A stretch of DNA of 45,535 nt. It comes from an uncultured Pseudomonadota bacterium. Lineage in GTDB: Bacteria > UBA10199 > JADFYH01. Numbering within the stretch: position 1 is the stretch's first letter; each line of letters opens with the position of its first letter. Both the position numbers and the translations under genes were made by a program. The notes under the pieces were generated by a model. It worked only from the letters and a program-made list of their open reading frames with translations. It was not told the DNA's origin and searched no databases. The stretch lies in NCBI GenBank assembly GCA_964470915.1, contig CAYYEM010000003.1:1-45535 (forward strand), given 5' to 3'. Below, piece by piece: positions 11,601 to 35,574 of this stretch.

Positions 11601-11629
11601 GAAACTTTGCACTTTCGCTTTGCCGATGT
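11601..11629 (+). promoter_or_regulatory. Sigma-28-like promoter motif, copy 1 (upstream of sctV)
   Basis: GAAACTTT (11601-11608), N13, GCCGATGT (11622-11629), ending 22 nt before ATG 11652. This is one of four copies of AACTT-N16-CGAT. The -10 half matches the FliA consensus GCCGATAA. Confidence 0.55.
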
Positions 11630-11651
11630 AGAATGAGTAAAATCCAATTCT

Positions 11652-13775
11652 ATGTTCGATAAACTCAAATTTTCTAATATTAATGAACTCATCACCAAAT
11701 ACAGTGACTTGGTTTTGGCTGCCTTAGTCATTGTGGTTTTGAGCTTAGTGATTATTCCGCTGCCGTCTTGGCTTATCGATATTTTGCTCACTATCGATAT
11801 TGCTCTCAGTGTTCTTATTTTATTGGTCGCCCTCTATATTTCAGATGCTCTAAAAATCGCATCTTTTCCTACTATTTTATTGATGACTACCTTGTATCGT
11901 TTGTCTCTGAATATTGCAGCGACTCGTTTGATTTTGTCCGAAGGGGAAGCAGGGGAAGTTATTCATGCTTTTGGTAGTTTTGTGGTGGGAGGTAATTATG
12001 TAGTGGGGGGAATTTTATTTCTTATTATTACCTTAGTGAACTTTATCGTTATTGCGAAAGGTGCTGAACGTGTTTCTGAAGTAGGAGCTCGATTTACCTT
12101 GGATGCTATGCCTGGAAAACAAATGAGTATTGATGCTGATCTGCGTGCAGGAATTATTAATATGGAACAGGCCATGGAACGTCGCTCTATTTTGCAGCGT
12201 GAAGCTCAGATGTATGGAGCGATGGACGGTGCGATGAAATTCGTCAAAGGAGATGCTATCGCAGGTATTATTATTACTGTGATCAATATTATTGGAGGAC
12301 TGATCATTGGTGTCATGCAGCGAGGTATGGAGTTTTCCAATGCTATTCAAGCTTACACTACACTCACTATCGGGGATGGAATGGTGGCTCAAATTCCCGC
12401 ACTCATGATTTCAGTTGCGGCAGGTATTGTGGTGACGCGCGTTGCTTCTGAAAATAAAGAATCCAATCTTGGTAAAGAAATTGTAGGACAGGTCACTTCT
12501 TATCCTAAAGCAATCGTGATTACTGCGGTTCTCTTGTTTGTGATGGCCTTAATCCCAGGCTTACCTCATTTAGCTTTTTTTATTTTGTCAGGTGTTTTGG
12601 GTGCTGTTGCTTATTTTCTCACTCGTAATAAAAAAACCGAAACACAAGAGTTGGCCGAAATTCCTAAAGACCAAGTGGTTAAAAAAGCGATCGAAAAGCA
12701 TGGCGATGTTTTACCGTTTATTATGCCATCCCCTATTTCTCTTGAAGTAGGGGAGGCTATTATTCCTTGGGTGGATGATACTCAAGATGGCGGACGCTTT
12801 ATTAACGAGCTCATTCCTTTGCTTCGTCACGGTTTGTATTATGAGTTAGGGGTGAATTTTCCAGGCATACAAGTACGCGGACAAAATGTCGATATGGAGC
12901 CTGAAAGTTACATTATTAATATTAATGAGGTCCCCGTTGCCAAAGGCAGAATTTATCGAGGTTGTATTCTAGTTGGTGAGCCCTTAGAGCAGCTTTCCCT
13001 TTTTAATATTAAGGGAGTGGAAACCATTCATCCTATTGATGGCTCAATTGTTACCTGGATTGCGGAAGAGCATAAAGAAACTGCTATTCAAGCTGGGTTT
13101 AGAATGTGGGATATCGCAGAATATCTTATTTTGCATCTTTCCTATATTTTGCGAAAACATGCCCATGAATTTTTAGGCTTACAAGAAATTCAAACCTTGT
13201 TGAATGAACTTGAGAAGTCTCATCCTGCCTTGGTGAAAGAATTGGTGCCCAAGGTAATAACGGTGTTGCAACTTTCAGAAATTTTTCAGCGTTTGGTGCA
13301 GGAAGAAATTGCGATTCGAGATTTGAAGTCTATTTTTTCCACTTTAGCTCAATGGGCAGAAGTTGAAAGAAATACACTGGTTCTCACTGAACATATTCGT
13401 GCTGGACTCAAACGCTATATTACTCATCGCTATGCGGGTCACGCGAATACACTGGCTGTTTATTTACTAGATCCTGACATAGAAGATCAGGTACGCAATG
13501 CAATTCGTACAACCGAAAAAGGAAACTATTTAGCTTTAGAACCTGAAATTACCCAAGAGATTGTAGAGTCAGTCGGTAAAGAAATTGCTTCTCATCCTTT
13601 TCCACCTGGAGCACGTCCTCCAGTAATATTAACTACGGCCGAAATTCGACGTTATTTTCGAAAAATTATAGAATTGGAATTTCCGCAATTGGCTGTTTTA
13701 TCCTATCAAGAGCTTTCTGAAAATCTTCGTATCCAACCGATTGCAAGAGTGGGTTTGCAGAAACAGATGACTTAA
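11652..13775 (+). CDS. sctV: T3SS export gate protein SctV (FlhA/YscV/InvA, FHIPEP family)
   Basis: 707 aa. N-terminal polytopic membrane domain with the FHIPEP signature GAERVSEVGARFTLDAMPGKQMSIDADLRAG, followed by a large cytoplasmic C-terminal domain. Confidence 0.9.
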   Translation: MFDKLKFSNINELITKYSDLVLAALVIVVLSLVIIPLPSWLIDILLTIDIALSVLILLVALYISDALKIASFPTILLMTTLYRLSLNIAATRLILSEGEAGEVIHAFGSFVVGGNYVVGGILFLIITLVNFIVIAKGAERVSEVGARFTLDAMPGKQMSIDADLRAGIINMEQAMERRSILQREAQMYGAMDGAMKFVKGDAIAGIIITVINIIGGLIIGVMQRGMEFSNAIQAYTTLTIGDGMVAQIPALMISVAAGIVVTRVASENKESNLGKEIVGQVTSYPKAIVITAVLLFVMALIPGLPHLAFFILSGVLGAVAYFLTRNKKTETQELAEIPKDQVVKKAIEKHGDVLPFIMPSPISLEVGEAIIPWVDDTQDGGRFINELIPLLRHGLYYELGVNFPGIQVRGQNVDMEPESYIININEVPVAKGRIYRGCILVGEPLEQLSLFNIKGVETIHPIDGSIVTWIAEEHKETAIQAGFRMWDIAEYLILHLSYILRKHAHEFLGLQEIQTLLNELEKSHPALVKELVPKVITVLQLSEIFQRLVQEEIAIRDLKSIFSTLAQWAEVERNTLVLTEHIRAGLKRYITHRYAGHANTLAVYLLDPDIEDQVRNAIRTTEKGNYLALEPEITQEIVESVGKEIASHPFPPGARPPVILTTAEIRRYFRKIIELEFPQLAVLSYQELSENLRIQPIARVGLQKQMT

Positions 13776-13793
13776 AATCAGACGAAGTGAATT

Positions 13794-33694: not shown

Positions 33695-33705
33695 GGAGTT
33701 TTTTT

Positions 33706-34878
33706 ATGGCAGGTCCTGTTAATTCAAATATGTCGAGTATTAATCCACAAATTCGTGGAGCAGGAGAAACTGCAGGTCAACTTAAAATTGACCAGAAGTT
33801 ATTGGAAAAAGTTTTAGCCAAGCAAGGCTTAAGTTCCCCTGAACAACTTGCAAAACTTTTAGGACCAGAAGTTTTAAGCTATTTTCGTGCCATTAGCGAA
33901 TCGCTCAGCAACTTGTGTAGTCGTATGCAAGAAGCTGAAGTAAAATCTCTTCCTGCACAACAGAATGAGCCTAAACTTGCAGAGTTTAGCATGCGCGATA
34001 CTTCTAAAGGAGCTCTTTACCAAGAGCGGTTACCTGAAAATTTTTTAACCATAGAAAAACTTAATTTGGCTGCCAAGACAGGTTTGTTAACCCAACCTCA
34101 GGCTGAAGCTTTGAAACAACTTTTCGGACTTTCTCAAGAAGTGAAAATGATGCATCGGGAAGAAGTTCCTATGCCTCAGGGAGGGCATCCCGCAGAACAA
34201 GAAAGAGAGAGAGGCGGGCAGCAGCAACAACAGCAAAGGCAGCAACAATCCGAAGATGAATCTTGGGCTGATTTTTCAACAAATCCTACAGGCGGTCCTC
34301 AGTCTGGCCAAGTGCCAAGCTATCCGGTGGAGGACGGCGCGCCTATTGGAGGAGGTTCTTTACGTTCAGGTATGAGAATGGGAATTGGCGGAGGGGCAAG
34401 ACAAAACATGGATGCACCCCCACCACCGCCACCTCCAGGATCATCTAACAGGTCTGCTTCACAAGGTCGATCTCCCACTGGCCAAGCGCCTAATATGACG
34501 GGCATGGAACAATCTTATTTGAATTCTAACTTTACGCCAGATGGGCCCTATTATGGCATGTTTGAAAGTTTATTTGGCTCCGAAAATTGGTATCGAAATT
34601 TGGCAGGTAATGCGCTTTCGAATATTCAAAAAATTCGTGAAGCCAAGCAGAGAATTCTTGCTGAGCTGGCAGGTTTAGATCCTTCAAAACCTGGAGATGC
34701 AAAAAAACTTTATATTTTGCAGCAAAAATTGGGTGATATGCAGCAGAGTGAAAGACAATGGTTAGATAATATTTCCACTGCTCAAAAAGCCAATAATGAA
34801 CGGAAGGAATATATAAAGTCTATTTTAGATATATTCTTCCAAACTAACAGTGCTATTATCCGAAACCTTAGACAGTAA
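33706..34878 (+). CDS. Gly/Pro/Gln-rich protein with needle-subunit-like C-terminal hairpin, paralogue 3
   Basis: 390 aa, RBS GGGAG. Poly-Q (QQQQQQRQQQ). GGGSLRSGMRMGIGGG followed by PPPPPPPG. The C-terminal region LDPSKPGDAKKLYILQQKLGDMQQ...ILDIFFQTNSAIIRNLRQ parallels the MxiH/PrgI turn and C-terminal helix (..KNPSNPQLLAEYQSKLSEY...DAAIIQNFR). Confidence 0.7.
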   Translation: MAGPVNSNMSSINPQIRGAGETAGQLKIDQKLLEKVLAKQGLSSPEQLAKLLGPEVLSYFRAISESLSNLCSRMQEAEVKSLPAQQNEPKLAEFSMRDTSKGALYQERLPENFLTIEKLNLAAKTGLLTQPQAEALKQLFGLSQEVKMMHREEVPMPQGGHPAEQERERGGQQQQQQRQQQSEDESWADFSTNPTGGPQSGQVPSYPVEDGAPIGGGSLRSGMRMGIGGGARQNMDAPPPPPPPGSSNRSASQGRSPTGQAPNMTGMEQSYLNSNFTPDGPYYGMFESLFGSENWYRNLAGNALSNIQKIREAKQRILAELAGLDPSKPGDAKKLYILQQKLGDMQQSERQWLDNISTAQKANNERKEYIKSILDIFFQTNSAIIRNLRQ

Positions 34879-34977
34879 AATTTGCATGAGTGATGAAGTG
34901 ACGATTTGCTTTCATGCCTATTTAGATAATTTAGTAATTGTTTGATTTTATAATTTGTTTCTTAGAAAATTAATAAC

Positions 34978-35574
34978 TTGAGTGACTCAGATAACAGAAT
35001 TCGAGAAACGACCCTCGAGGAAAAGGTTCAAAGTAAAATTTTTGATCCGACTCCTCAAAGGAAGAAGTACGTCATAGAACTTCTCTATAAGTTTTTTTCC
35101 CAACAAATTACCTATTCAGAACTTACTGGAATTCCTCAAAAAGAATTATTTCAACTCGCTGAAGCAGGACATCTGAAGCTAACCTATGGTCGTGTGGAAG
35201 AAGCTCAGCAAGTTTTTGAGTGTTTGGTCAAATTAGATCCTCATAATTATTATTACCATGCTGCTTTGGGTAGTGTTTATCAAAAGCAAAAAAAATATGT
35301 GGAAGCTGTTTTTGAATATACAGAATCGCTTAGATTTAATTCAGAAGATGTAGCGAGTATGGTGAATCGGGGAGAGATTTATCTCATTCATAAAAACTTC
35401 AGAAAAGCTGCTGAAGATTTTAGAAATGCGATTTTGAAGGATCCAACAGGGAGAAATAATTATTCGAACCGTGCGCGCTCTTTGGTAATTGCCATTAAAC
35501 GAAATCTTCAGCTCCAAAAGCCAGCAGGAGCTAAAAGTAAAAACCCACCTGAATTGCCAGAAGGACAAGTTTAA
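34978..35574 (+). CDS. TPR chaperone, LcrH/SycD (class II) family-like, copy 3
   Basis: 198 aa (TTG start, uncertain). ELTGIPQKELFQLAEAGHLKLTYGRVEEAQQVFECLVKLDPHNYYYHAALGSVYQKQKKYVEAVFEYTESLRFN is collinear with copy 2 and with LcrH/SycD. Confidence 0.75.
   Translation: MSDSDNRIRETTLEEKVQSKIFDPTPQRKKYVIELLYKFFSQQITYSELTGIPQKELFQLAEAGHLKLTYGRVEEAQQVFECLVKLDPHNYYYHAALGSVYQKQKKYVEAVFEYTESLRFNSEDVASMVNRGEIYLIHKNFRKAAEDFRNAILKDPTGRNNYSNRARSLVIAIKRNLQLQKPAGAKSKNPPELPEGQV

Follow-up and report, generated by a model that had tools for sequence, protein, structure and literature searches.

We focus here on a stretch of DNA of 45,535 nucleotides from an uncultured Pseudomonadota bacterium (contig CAYYEM010000003.1; hereafter the window), in which almost all open reading frames (ORFs) between 11652 and 35574 form a single type III secretion system (T3SS) cluster according to Pfam and NCBIfam matches, the Pfam scans covering the 51 longest ORFs of the window. 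The cluster opens with SctV, two minus-strand genes (encoding a protein with two FHA domains and a TPR protein of 398 amino acids (aa)), a 722-aa protein with an FHA domain, a transmembrane segment and PEGA/TPR domains, and a 95-aa protein; it continues with Gly-rich protein 1, a 139-aa TPR protein, SctJ, proteins of 167 and 118 aa, a FliA-like sigma factor and a 161-aa SctI-like protein; then come FliG-like, SctL, SctN, SctO, SctP/FliK-like, FliM-like, FliN-like, FliO, SctR, SctS and SctT; and it ends with Gly-rich protein 2, a TPR chaperone, Gly-rich protein 3 and a second TPR chaperone (Table 1). All ORFs of the window are intact. A preliminary description of this DNA had proposed a gene order like that of flagellar fliG-K and fliM-R, with flagellar parts combined with those of an injectisome; coordinates and order are as it gave them, and the hybrid injectisome/flagellar composition is confirmed. 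Related loci from other genomes are numbered L002–L036.

Switch proteins, export gate and ring proteins

First of all, the gene at the sctK position encodes a homologue of FliG, and the FliG fold proposed earlier for 23484..24443 is borne out by three lines of evidence. Both Pfam FliG domains exceed their cut-offs (Table 1); a 17-member alignment of the FliG-like family matches four canonical FliG proteins in hhalign with a probability of 96.4% (E 1.2e-9 over 167 columns, covering the middle and C-terminal domains); and the 12 best PDB matches returned by Foldseek for an AlphaFold2 model of the protein (predicted local distance difference test, pLDDT, 84) are all FliG, aligned over 243–366 columns, with TM-scores of 0.71–0.74 against isolated FliG middle domains. 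The FliG-like protein is 16% identical to FliG, and the glutamate and proline of the EHPQ(R) motif are invariant across its family. D288, D289 and R297 of E. coli FliG contact MotA; aligned by hhalign, the family conserves none of these three and has basic residues at the positions of K264 and R281. A divergent SctK was considered and is ruled out, the same alignment reaching 0.2% against four SctK-position proteins (YscK, MxiK and the products of two unnamed genes) and no SctK appearing among the Foldseek PDB matches of the model. Residues 83–127 of the protein also show a weak match (22.8 bits) to the C-terminal end of the NCBIfam model PRK05934, which we take to describe a 341-aa chlamydial ‘type III secretion system protein’; if so, the match hints that Chlamydiae may also keep a FliG_M-like segment.

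Second, the FliM-like protein and the separate FliN that had been described hold up, each with more than 74 bits to its Pfam family (FliM 74.6, FliMN_C 74.4). The FliM-type protein retains the GGXG motif, which binds FliG, and lacks the N-terminal LSQxEIDALL peptide, which binds phosphorylated CheY (CheY-P). The slots of the canonical sorting-platform proteins SctQ and SctK are thus filled by a FliM-type protein with a separate SpoA protein, and by a FliG homologue, so that the FliG-FliM-FliN switch set is present, with a FliM that is devoid of the CheY-binding N-terminus. Taken together, the residues kept and lost in FliG and FliM read as those of a module that can still assemble and is uncoupled from both stators and chemotaxis.

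Third, the export gate leans to the non-flagellar side. SctV scores 807 bits with the hrcV/SctV model, passing its cut-off of 692, and 713 bits with FlhA, failing the cut-off of 772; its best PDB match is YscV (598 bits), followed by FlhA (487 bits), and among PDB entries that hold the C-terminal domain only, it matches chlamydial CdsV highest. SctR likewise passes the yscR model (234 bits, cut-off 209) and fails that of fliP (210 bits, cut-off 217). SctS exceeds the cut-offs of both the fliQ (101 bits) and the SctS (98 bits) models, and SctT, at 274 aa, carries no FlhB fusion. For the ATPase there is a near tie in NCBIfam between SctN (645 bits) and FliI_clade2 (641 bits); in tblastn against plasmid records it is 61% identical to a Firmicute FliI versus 57.5% to YscN, and in the PDB the T3SS ATPases and EscN score slightly above FliI. 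By the NCBI equivalog models, SctV and SctR are therefore non-flagellar and SctS, SctT and SctN ambiguous, and the injectisome core members SctJ, SctN, SctR, SctS, SctT and SctV are all present. FliO is identified as claimed, above its Pfam cut-off and with a TIGR03500 match (Table 1). It can no longer count as the flagellum-only hallmark for which it had been taken, because it was reported in 2025 in Myxococcota (in both Myxococcus xanthus systems) and in some Pseudomonadota non-flagellar T3SS (PMC12248157).

Finally, the position of the MS ring is occupied, as stated in the preliminary description, by a YscJ/PrgK-type lipoprotein with an LSAC lipobox and one C-terminal transmembrane segment: its NCBIfam score is 138 bits with SctJ versus 39 bits with FliF, and two FliF queries match only its ring domain in tblastn. 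Its cytoplasmic tail (residues 252–300, about 50 aa) is unusually long, those of YscJ and MxiJ having 5 aa or less, and carries a motif that is semi-conserved in the family, (L/M)L..P...P-(Q/R)-(I/L)-G. By analogy with the FliF C-terminus in flagella, this tail could be a docking site for the FliG homologue. The statement that no canonical SctD is visible stands in part. An SctD-like protein exists, with orthologues in at least 10 loci, in which a cytoplasmic FHA/YscD domain, one transmembrane segment and a periplasmic part of about 485 aa give the topology of SctD; that periplasmic part, on the other hand, consists of PEGA/TPR domains and holds no recognised ring-building motifs.

Table 1. 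Features of the cluster and its neighbourhood in window coordinates (TM, transmembrane segment, in residues).
Feature	Position	Strand	Evidence and remarks
PP2C Ser/Thr phosphatase	5090..5854	+	Pfam PP2C
Sigma-28-like promoter motif AACTTT-N13-GCCGAT, 5' of sctV	11603..11627	+	exact; same motif at SctV in L019
SctV export-gate protein	11652..13775	+	FHIPEP 803 bits
Tail-anchored protein with two FHA domains	13794..14870	-	FHA x2, Yop-YscD_cpl x2; TM 336-354
398-aa TPR protein	14886..16082	-	Pfam TPR families; N-terminal hydrophobic segment 4-22; conserved beside FHA genes
SctD-like bitopic protein, 722 aa	16243..18411	+	Yop-YscD_cpl 63.7 bits (cut-off 33.2), FHA, PEGA x2, TPR; TM 219-237
Conserved 95-aa protein	18500..18787	+	no family match; orthologues 42-87% identical, same position, 12 loci
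Gly-rich protein 1, candidate polymerising substrate	18877..19428	+	needle-like C-terminus (...SNIFKADHDARSNAIRNFRS); last 55 aa conserved in 13 loci
139-aa TPR chaperone (CdsG/YscG- or LcrH-like)	19536..19955	+	LcrH_SycD 35, CdsG 33.5 (near full length), SctY 28 bits; all below cut-offs
SctJ inner-membrane ring lipoprotein, 300 aa	19961..20863	+	YscJ_FliF 82.9 bits; lipobox LSAC; C-terminal TM 233-251
Sigma-28-like promoter motif, 5' of 167-aa gene	20909..20933	+	exact; same at orthologue in L002, L003, L004, L014, L016
Conserved 167-aa protein, candidate early substrate	20960..21463	+	no family match; orthologues in L002-L005, L006, L009, L012, L014
Poorly conserved 118-aa protein, just 5' of sigma gene	21497..21853	+	no family match; orthologues 26-56% identical
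Sigma-54-type promoter TGGCAT-N5-GTGCA	22003..22018	+	57 nt 5' of sigma gene; only match in window
FliA/WhiG-like (sigma-28-like) sigma factor	22075..22872	+	Sigma70 r2 and r4; best NCBIfam FliA_WhiG, 133 bits (cut-off 190, failed)
SctI-like inner rod candidate, 161 aa	22905..23390	+	best Pfam T3SS_basalb_I, E 0.2, at C-terminal end of model; weak
FliG homologue at sctK position	23484..24443	+	FliG_M 31.7 bits (cut-off 25), FliG_C 29.9 bits (cut-off 23.3)
SctL/FliH stator	24464..25219	+	FliH 69.5 bits; best NCBIfam HrpE/YscL family models
SctN/FliI ATPase	25228..26598	+	ATP-synt_ab and T3SS_ATPase_C
SctO/FliJ stalk	26619..27119	+	YscO-like 71.9 bits; FliJ 27 bits
SctP/FliK-like ruler	27140..27997	+	Flg_hook 22 bits, below cut-off; L022 and L023 orthologues carry PF02120
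FliM-type protein, middle and C-terminal SpoA domains	28049..29002	+	Pfam FliM 74.6 bits; sole NCBIfam match fliM_switch
Stand-alone FliN/SctQ-C (SpoA)	29002..29409	+	FliMN_C 74.4 bits; SpaO_YscQ 83, FliN 69 bits
FliO	29439..29801	+	Pfam 40 bits (cut-off 22); TIGR03500 48.6 bits; TM 32-50
SctR/FliP	29779..30567	+	Pfam FliP family 237.7 bits
SctS/FliQ	30571..30837	+	Bac_export_3 102 bits
SctT/FliR, 274 aa	30850..31674	+	Bac_export_1 176.6 bits; SctT 147 vs FliR 135 bits
Sigma-28-like promoter motif, 5' of Gly-rich protein 2	31761..31785	+	exact; same at L002 orthologue
Gly/Met-rich protein 2, 342 aa, candidate translocator-/needle-like substrate	31861..32889	+	...TVIQSFRA end; hydrophobic segment 201-219
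LcrH/SycD-like TPR chaperone	33044..33694	+	best LcrH_SycD 71.9 bits (cut-off 104.8, failed); Pfam TPR_3 22 bits
Gly/Pro-rich protein 3, candidate substrate	33706..34878	+	...SAIIRNLRQ end; paralogous to proteins 1 and 2; no family match
LcrH/SycD-like TPR chaperone	34978..35574	+	best LcrH_SycD 65.4 bits, below cut-off; SicA 31 bits
FHA-domain sigma-54 enhancer-binding protein	35577..37004	-	FHA, Sigma54_activat, HTH_8
Ser/Thr kinase with TM and PEGA domains	37031..39559	-	Pkinase, PEGA x4; TM 416-434

Substrates, regulation and genomic setting

The candidate substrates are the three Gly-rich proteins, each of whose genes is followed by that of a TPR chaperone. A GGSLR(G/S)N motif and polyproline runs are common to all three, which match nothing in Pfam or NCBIfam and have C-termini (...IRNFRS, ...IQSFRA and ...IRNLRQ in proteins 1–3) that recall the ...IIQNFR of PrgI and MxiH. 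Protein 2 is paralogous to protein 3 (E 2.5e-6) and protein 1 (E 1e-4) and has a single hydrophobic segment, as in translocators. In the PDB, a profile of the C-terminus of protein 1 is best matched by a 43-residue chain of 7y6c (E 0.059), labelled needle co-chaperone in the match table and read here as a needle-protein fragment, and next by the C-terminus of PrgI (E 0.48), both end-to-end and weak; Pfam T3SS_needle_F does not match the needle-like C-termini. The SctI-like gene lies at the sctI position and, in L022, immediately 5' of SctJ and FliG-like, and its profile returns only noise from the PDB. Of the SctI-like and needle-like proteins claimed earlier, matches exist for both, and these are weak (E 0.2 and E 0.06–0.5, respectively). 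Of the three proposed LcrH/SycD-class chaperones, two have LcrH_SycD as their best NCBIfam match, and the third matches both LcrH_SycD and CdsG, the chlamydial needle chaperone, all below cut-offs.

In terms of regulation, the sigma factor, whose orthologues are found in all loci at 58–93% identity, was assigned to the FliA family; FliA/WhiG is indeed its best NCBIfam match, at a score short of the cut-off. The motif AACTTW-N13-RCCGAT has three exact matches in the window, all on the plus strand and intergenic, and five when one mismatch is allowed, versus 0.9 expected, a count that none of 100 shuffles reaches. It recurs 5' of orthologous genes in eight other genomes (L002 at 7445 and 18349, L003 at 7429, L004 at 7396, L013 at 4968, L014 at 3290 and 5410, L015 at 4733, L016 at 7426 and L019 at 9782), overall at 39–65% G+C. 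The sigma-28 consensus is TAAAGTTT-N11-GCCGATAA; the motif resembles it, fits the FliA-like sigma factor of the cluster and probably marks its regulon. The sigma-54-type promoter is kept 5' of the sigma orthologue in L003 (8523), L006 (8594), L008 (8637) and L023 (8673), and an FHA-sigma-54 activator, the probable master activator, adjoins the cluster in the window and has its orthologue inside the cluster in L014. Together, the sigma-54 promoter at the sigma gene and this neighbouring activator suggest a likely sigma-54 to sigma-28 cascade, which is otherwise typical of polar flagella. As the conserved promoters suggest, a Ser/Thr kinase and a phosphatase would act on FHA domains, the FHA-sigma-54 activator would then fire the sigma-54 promoter before the gene of the FliA-like sigma factor, and this factor in turn may drive the AACTTT-N13-GCCGAT promoters, which stand before sctV, before the 167-aa gene and before the genes of the Gly-rich substrates with their chaperones. 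The kinase is the probable sensor feeding the FHA proteins, and the PP2C phosphatase a possible signalling partner of both. The two-FHA protein is kept in L002–L004, L008, L009, L019, L021, L023, L035 and L036. Further sigma-54-type sites lie 3' of sctT in L006, L012 and L013. In addition, G+C-rich hairpins with T runs behind them (e.g. AAACCCCTCTTTATTAAAGAGGGGTTTTTT) are found at 19429–19535, 23391–23483 and 32890–33043, that is, 3' of Gly-rich protein 1, of the SctI-like gene and of Gly-rich protein 2; the cluster is thus probably divided into several transcription units, one terminator separating the SctI-like gene from the FliG-like gene.

The family is widespread. The exact FliG-like protein is found on two contigs, one of 82 kb (NCBI) and one of 12.8 kb (Logan); of the window's flanking genes, MgsA recurs as an exact protein on a contig of 9.6 kb, and MlaE has no such record. 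Scanning GTDB with one genome for each species gave 17 loci with the same gene order, and protein look-up added four more (L022, L023, L035 and L036). The genomes that carry the cluster, all metagenome-assembled, have 37–65% G+C and are labelled Deltaproteobacteria, Pseudomonadota, Bdellovibrio sp., Pseudobdellovibrionaceae, Myxococcales or Candidatus Schekmanbacteria. Within the family, identities are 73–92% for SctN, 75–96% for SctV and 31–81% for the FliG-like protein; SctV at 75% identity or more occurs in over 120 protein clusters, named SctV by the NCBI pipeline. An exhaustive profile search of 1.84 billion representatives recovers 260 FliG-like representatives at E<1e-10 and 928 at E<1e-3, and the named members are nearly all ‘hypothetical protein’, one being named FliG by JGI. 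In the Schekmanbacteria locus (L022) the order is sigma factor, SctI-like, SctJ, FliG-like, SctL, SctN, SctO and SctP; the FliG homologue thus sits where fliG follows fliF and where sctK follows sctJ. In L006, L012, L013 and L015, sctV is unlinked from the main cluster, and the layout of L019 is looser. Some reading frames are split, those of SctR and SctT in L004 (16669–18321) and of the Gly-rich protein 1 and SctO orthologues in L002 (5400–5961 and 13135–13635), which reflects assembly errors or local decay; in L015 (13180–14556), two unrelated ORFs of 246 and 186 aa lie between sctN and sctO, and the start of one of them resembles that of a lipoprotein.

The G+C content is 39% throughout the window, uniform and without a compositional island. 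Positions 1–11536 hold the housekeeping genes MgsA, RecN, PmbA/TldD, PP2C phosphatase, M23 peptidase, SecA and ArgJ; 3' of the cluster, the FHA-sigma-54 activator and the Ser/Thr kinase with PEGA domains lie on the minus strand, and beyond the kinase come the housekeeping genes YGGT, ProC, YggS and MlaE (all by Pfam). The RecN-PmbA-PP2C-M23-SecA-ArgJ-SctV synteny (the 1858–11536 block with sctV) is kept in L021, L035 and L036, which are distant family members; sctV is at a fixed chromosomal site adjoining argJ, and as this upstream synteny is shared by several genomes, the cluster is vertically inherited. Horizontal transfer on a mobile island is ruled out by the uniform G+C content and the conserved flanking synteny. 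Two ORFs near the kinase, of 539 aa (40661–42280, plus strand) and of 134 aa with a C-terminal transmembrane segment (39591–39995, minus strand), have no Pfam or NCBIfam match.

Missing parts, closest relatives and phylogenetic placement

Absence of parts was checked with the Pfam scan and with tblastn searches of the window and 22 related loci, about 390 kb, using reference proteins from pYV, pCP301, the Ralstonia megaplasmid, a Bradyrhizobium plasmid and E. coli K-12. On the flagellar side, Pfam finds no FliF, rod, hook, flagellin or Mot protein (MotAB) in the window, FliE is missing from the window and the 22 loci, and no FliE, rod or hook gene stands beside the cluster in any of the at least 20 genomes. 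On the injectisome side, the window has no Secretin domain, and YscC, HrcC, MxiD and RhcC1 find nothing in the window and the 22 loci; in the same sequences, the queries for the gatekeeper (YopN), SctK (YscK, MxiK and the two unnamed SctK-position genes) and SctU/FlhB (YscU, RhcU, HrcU, Spa40 and FlhB) return noise only (E >= 0.7). Bac_export_2, the Pfam family of SctU, has no match in the 51 longest window ORFs or in the relatives' loci checked, no ORF with the NPxH signature of SctU occurs in 17 loci, no protein with four transmembrane segments is found among the unassigned window ORFs, and the sctV neighbourhoods of four long contigs hold no SctU; in the window, the SctU slot after sctT is taken by the 342-aa Gly/Met-rich protein 2. 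That the window lacks FliF, rod, hook, flagellin and Mot genes, as well as secretin, SctU/FlhB and gatekeeper, is therefore as first described. Rulers act on SctU/FlhB. Because the cluster has a FliK/SctP-like ruler, and because several members already have sctV apart from the main cluster, sctU is expected elsewhere in the genome, where it is probably encoded.

By description, the closest known system is the needle-less T3SS* of Myxococcus. A secretin-less Myxococcales group was placed at the root of non-flagellar T3SS by Abby and Rocha (PMC3459982), who found these systems to be devoid of FlgBCDEK, FliE, FliG, FlgH, MotAB, secretin and SctF, and the Myxococcus T3SS* is regarded as a secretin-less and needle-less intermediate (PMC3459982, PMC10433427). 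In M. xanthus, it is encoded by MXAN_2434-2464, with SctD, SctJ, SctI, SctQ, SctRSTUV, SctN, SctL and LcrH-like chaperones, and prey lysis requires it along with the Kil Tad pilus (PMC10433427, PMC12075869). In the literature we found no report of a FliG homologue, a FliM-type partner, a sigma-28-like regulon or a missing linked sctU in a non-flagellar T3SS. The FliG homologue, its FliM-type partner and the sigma-54 to sigma-28-like promoter hierarchy thus appear to be new in a non-flagellar system, and the intermediate character and FliO are not. Of the suggestion that this is a possibly undescribed family, the hybrid content and the apparent novelty of FliG stand, and the secretin-less, needle-less Myxococcus T3SS* is a precedent (PMC3459982, PMC10433427).

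Phylogenetic placement is consistent with the gene content. Neighbour-joining trees with 200 bootstraps were built for SctR, SctS, SctT, SctV and the SctRST and SctRSTN concatenates, with references from four injectisome families (Ysc, Rhc, Hrc and Mxi-Spa) and with two to four from flagella. They recover the family as monophyletic (100% in the concatenates), apart from all four injectisome families and from the flagellar proteins of E. coli and Acetoanaerobium. The concatenates split it from the injectisomes at 100% and from two flagellar references at 98–100%; with SctV alone the injectisome split has 86%, and the single-gene splits of SctS and SctT have 46–84%. Identity of the family to the flagellar references and to the injectisome references is alike, at 34–42%, and exceeds the 28–36% between those two groups. 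The export-gate and ATPase proteins thus fall, as anticipated, between flagellar and injectisome references and outside the named injectisome families, in a test that is rough and uses few references, and these crude trees and the gene content agree in roughly placing the family near the flagellar/non-flagellar split.

A proposed static switch module and its alternatives

We consider it probable that the cluster encodes an early-branching, secretin-less non-flagellar T3SS in which the switch module of the flagellum has been kept as a static sorting platform, with the Myxococcus T3SS* as its nearest described relative. In such a machine, FliG-FliM-FliN would form a sorting platform instead of a rotor, with FliG taking the place that SctK has in injectisomes. 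The three paralogous Gly-rich proteins with needle-like C-termini, each with its TPR chaperone, would be the substrates, and, given the SctP/FliK-like ruler, they may build a polymer of controlled length. As no secretin is linked, our guess is that this structure works within the periplasm, or else in partnership with a different machine of the envelope.

Several points weigh against this interpretation. First, the N-terminal 55 residues of the FliG-like protein are in register with the FliG N-domain only weakly (P 0.01), and how FliG would attach is conjecture: it may dock on the long SctJ tail or, in the SctD-like protein, on the FHA domain. Second, statistical support is weak for both the needle-like and the SctI-like assignments. 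Third, we know of no T3SS that works without SctU/FlhB; either sctU is unlinked, therefore, or the model is incomplete, and in none of the relatives does the cluster or sctV have an SctU/FlhB gene within about 10 kb. Fourth, the trees are crude and were made without Myxococcus or Chlamydia sequences, and in the ATPase tree rooted with AtpA/AtpD, the family groups weakly (65%) with FliI. Finally, a role in predation is drawn from analogy.

The foremost alternative, which we hold to be a live possibility somewhat short of an even chance, is that the family simply is the Myxo-type T3SS* in uncultured relatives, that M. xanthus has the same FliG-like gene annotated as hypothetical, and that only the annotation is new. 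Compared with the published lists, the two share SctJ, an FHA-type SctD, SctI (a candidate in the window), SctL, SctN, a SctQ-type protein, SctRST, SctV, LcrH-like chaperones, FliO and the lack of a linked secretin (PMC10433427, PMC12248157); both are non-flagellar, chromosomal and vertically inherited, have sigma-54/kinase/FHA-style regulators nearby and are seen as flagellum-injectisome intermediates. One family locus (L016) is labelled Myxococcales. Furthermore, sctQ is MXAN_2445 and the T3SS* deletion covers mxan_2438-2451, a numbering that fits the window order from the sigma gene to sctU, puts a gene in the FliG slot, and is a lead rather than a test. At 16% identity, the homologue is so far from FliG that a profile of 2012 could have failed to detect its counterpart in Myxococcus. 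However, Myxo systems are stated to be without FliG (Abby and Rocha, PMC3459982), and our FliG-like searches, limited in reach, gave only uncultured genomes and no named Myxococcus protein; a profile of the high-G+C family members has eight matches, none from a cultured organism. Myxo loci also contain sctU (PMC10433427), which is missing from every family locus examined, and reportedly have neither FliG nor a needle homologue, whereas the window family has a FliG homologue, a FliM-type protein with GGXG, a separate FliN and three Gly-rich proteins, a comparison made from descriptions, not sequences. The hosts differ as well, those of the window family being uncultured, of 37–65% G+C, and labelled Deltaproteobacteria, Bdellovibrio-like, Myxococcales or Schekmanbacteria.

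A bolder form of the early-branching interpretation, which we regard as tentative and rather doubtful, is that the family is the deepest surviving branch of non-flagellar T3SS, having exchanged FliF for SctJ/SctD and gained needle substrates and TPR chaperones before the C-ring, FliO and the sigma hierarchy were lost. If this were true, SctK and SctQ would have replaced FliG and FliM late, and the sorting platform would have begun as a non-rotating flagellar switch complex; in its boldest version, the machine would truly have no dedicated SctU and would work without one or borrow FlhB.

Unlikely, in our view, is a dispersed canonical injectisome as in Chlamydiae, with SctU, secretin, gatekeeper and translocators elsewhere in the genome, that injects eukaryotic hosts such as protists. 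Dispersal itself has precedents in the scattered T3SS loci of Chlamydiales (Abby and Rocha, PMC3459982) and, within the family, in the unlinked sctV of four loci and the looser L019; and the likeness to the chlamydial Cds system extends to a sigma-28-like factor without a flagellum, an FHA ring protein, a Ser/Thr kinase neighbour, a CdsG-like chaperone and the match of the SctV C-terminal domain to CdsV. With the Ysc, Inv-Mxi-Spa, Hrp and Rhc injectisomes, too, the cluster shares the order sctI-J-(K)-L and sctN-O-P-Q-R-S-T, SctJ, SctO, and LcrH-type chaperones beside the substrates. Chlamydiae, on the other hand, have CdsC, CdsU, CopN and CdsF and no FliG/FliM-type C-ring (the trees hold no chlamydial sequences), and canonical injectisomes carry SctK, not FliG, and SctQ instead of FliM with FliN. 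The family, in contrast, has no secretin, SctU or gatekeeper in its roughly 390 kb of loci, nor a tip or recognisable translocon, and falls outside the clade of the four sampled injectisome families (100% in the concatenates, 86% with SctV alone). Its sequenced stretches have large housekeeping sets with conserved synteny, as in free-living bacteria, and no secretin dedicated to the T3SS*, the closest described system, exists anywhere in Myxococcus (PMC10849154).

Very improbable is a split flagellar locus, in which the export core and C-ring of a true flagellum would be encoded here and FliF, rod, hook, filament and stator elsewhere. The fliG-to-fliR order, FliG, FliM and FliN with GGXG and a partial EHPQR, FliO, the FliK-like ruler, the FliA-like sigma factor in its hierarchy, and an ATPase as close to FliI as to SctN (61% versus 57.5%, and 65% bootstrap with FliI) are all like a flagellum. 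Yet a 300-aa SctJ-type lipoprotein replaces FliF, SctV and SctR pass the non-flagellar cut-offs and fail those of FlhA and FliP, and the proposal that the system is not a split flagellar locus, an outcome that the preliminary description had named as refuting it, is supported. In addition, LcrH/CdsG-like TPR chaperones of class II/III replace those of the FliS/FlgN/FliT type and stand with a YscO-like stalk and an FHA SctD-like protein, FliM has no CheY peptide and FliG no acidic torque-helix pair, and rod, hook, filament, FliE and MotAB genes are not linked. Barely credible, finally, is a decaying relic, deprived of SctU and the outer parts and without any remaining secretion, for although SctU, secretin and gatekeeper were not found in the window and 22 loci, SctR and SctT frames are broken in L004, and the Myxococcus loci were formerly annotated as relics (PMC3459982), the window ORFs are all intact, gene order is identical across genomes 25 G+C points apart, SctV and SctN are highly conserved family-wide (75–96% and 73–92%) along with the promoters, and the Myxococcus counterpart has a demonstrated phenotype (PMC12075869).

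It is accepted that the injectisome arose from the flagellar export apparatus, and the Myxococcus needle-less system, described without FliG, is to our knowledge the only known intermediate. A system that combines an SctJ ring with FliG and FliM homologues, and that is widespread and conserved, would offer, for the machine's cytoplasmic side, an intermediate that is concrete. Questions that become testable with it are what FliG docked on after the loss of FliF, whether SctK is a replacement or a derivative of FliG, and when rotation was lost. Furthermore, several hundred unannotated ‘hypothetical’ proteins are added to the FliG superfamily. As to function, the analogy with Myxococcus leads us to guess that the system probably serves contact-dependent attack on other bacteria and not injection into eukaryotic cells; if so, a large uncultured Deltaproteobacteria-like group may use a T3SS against other bacteria.

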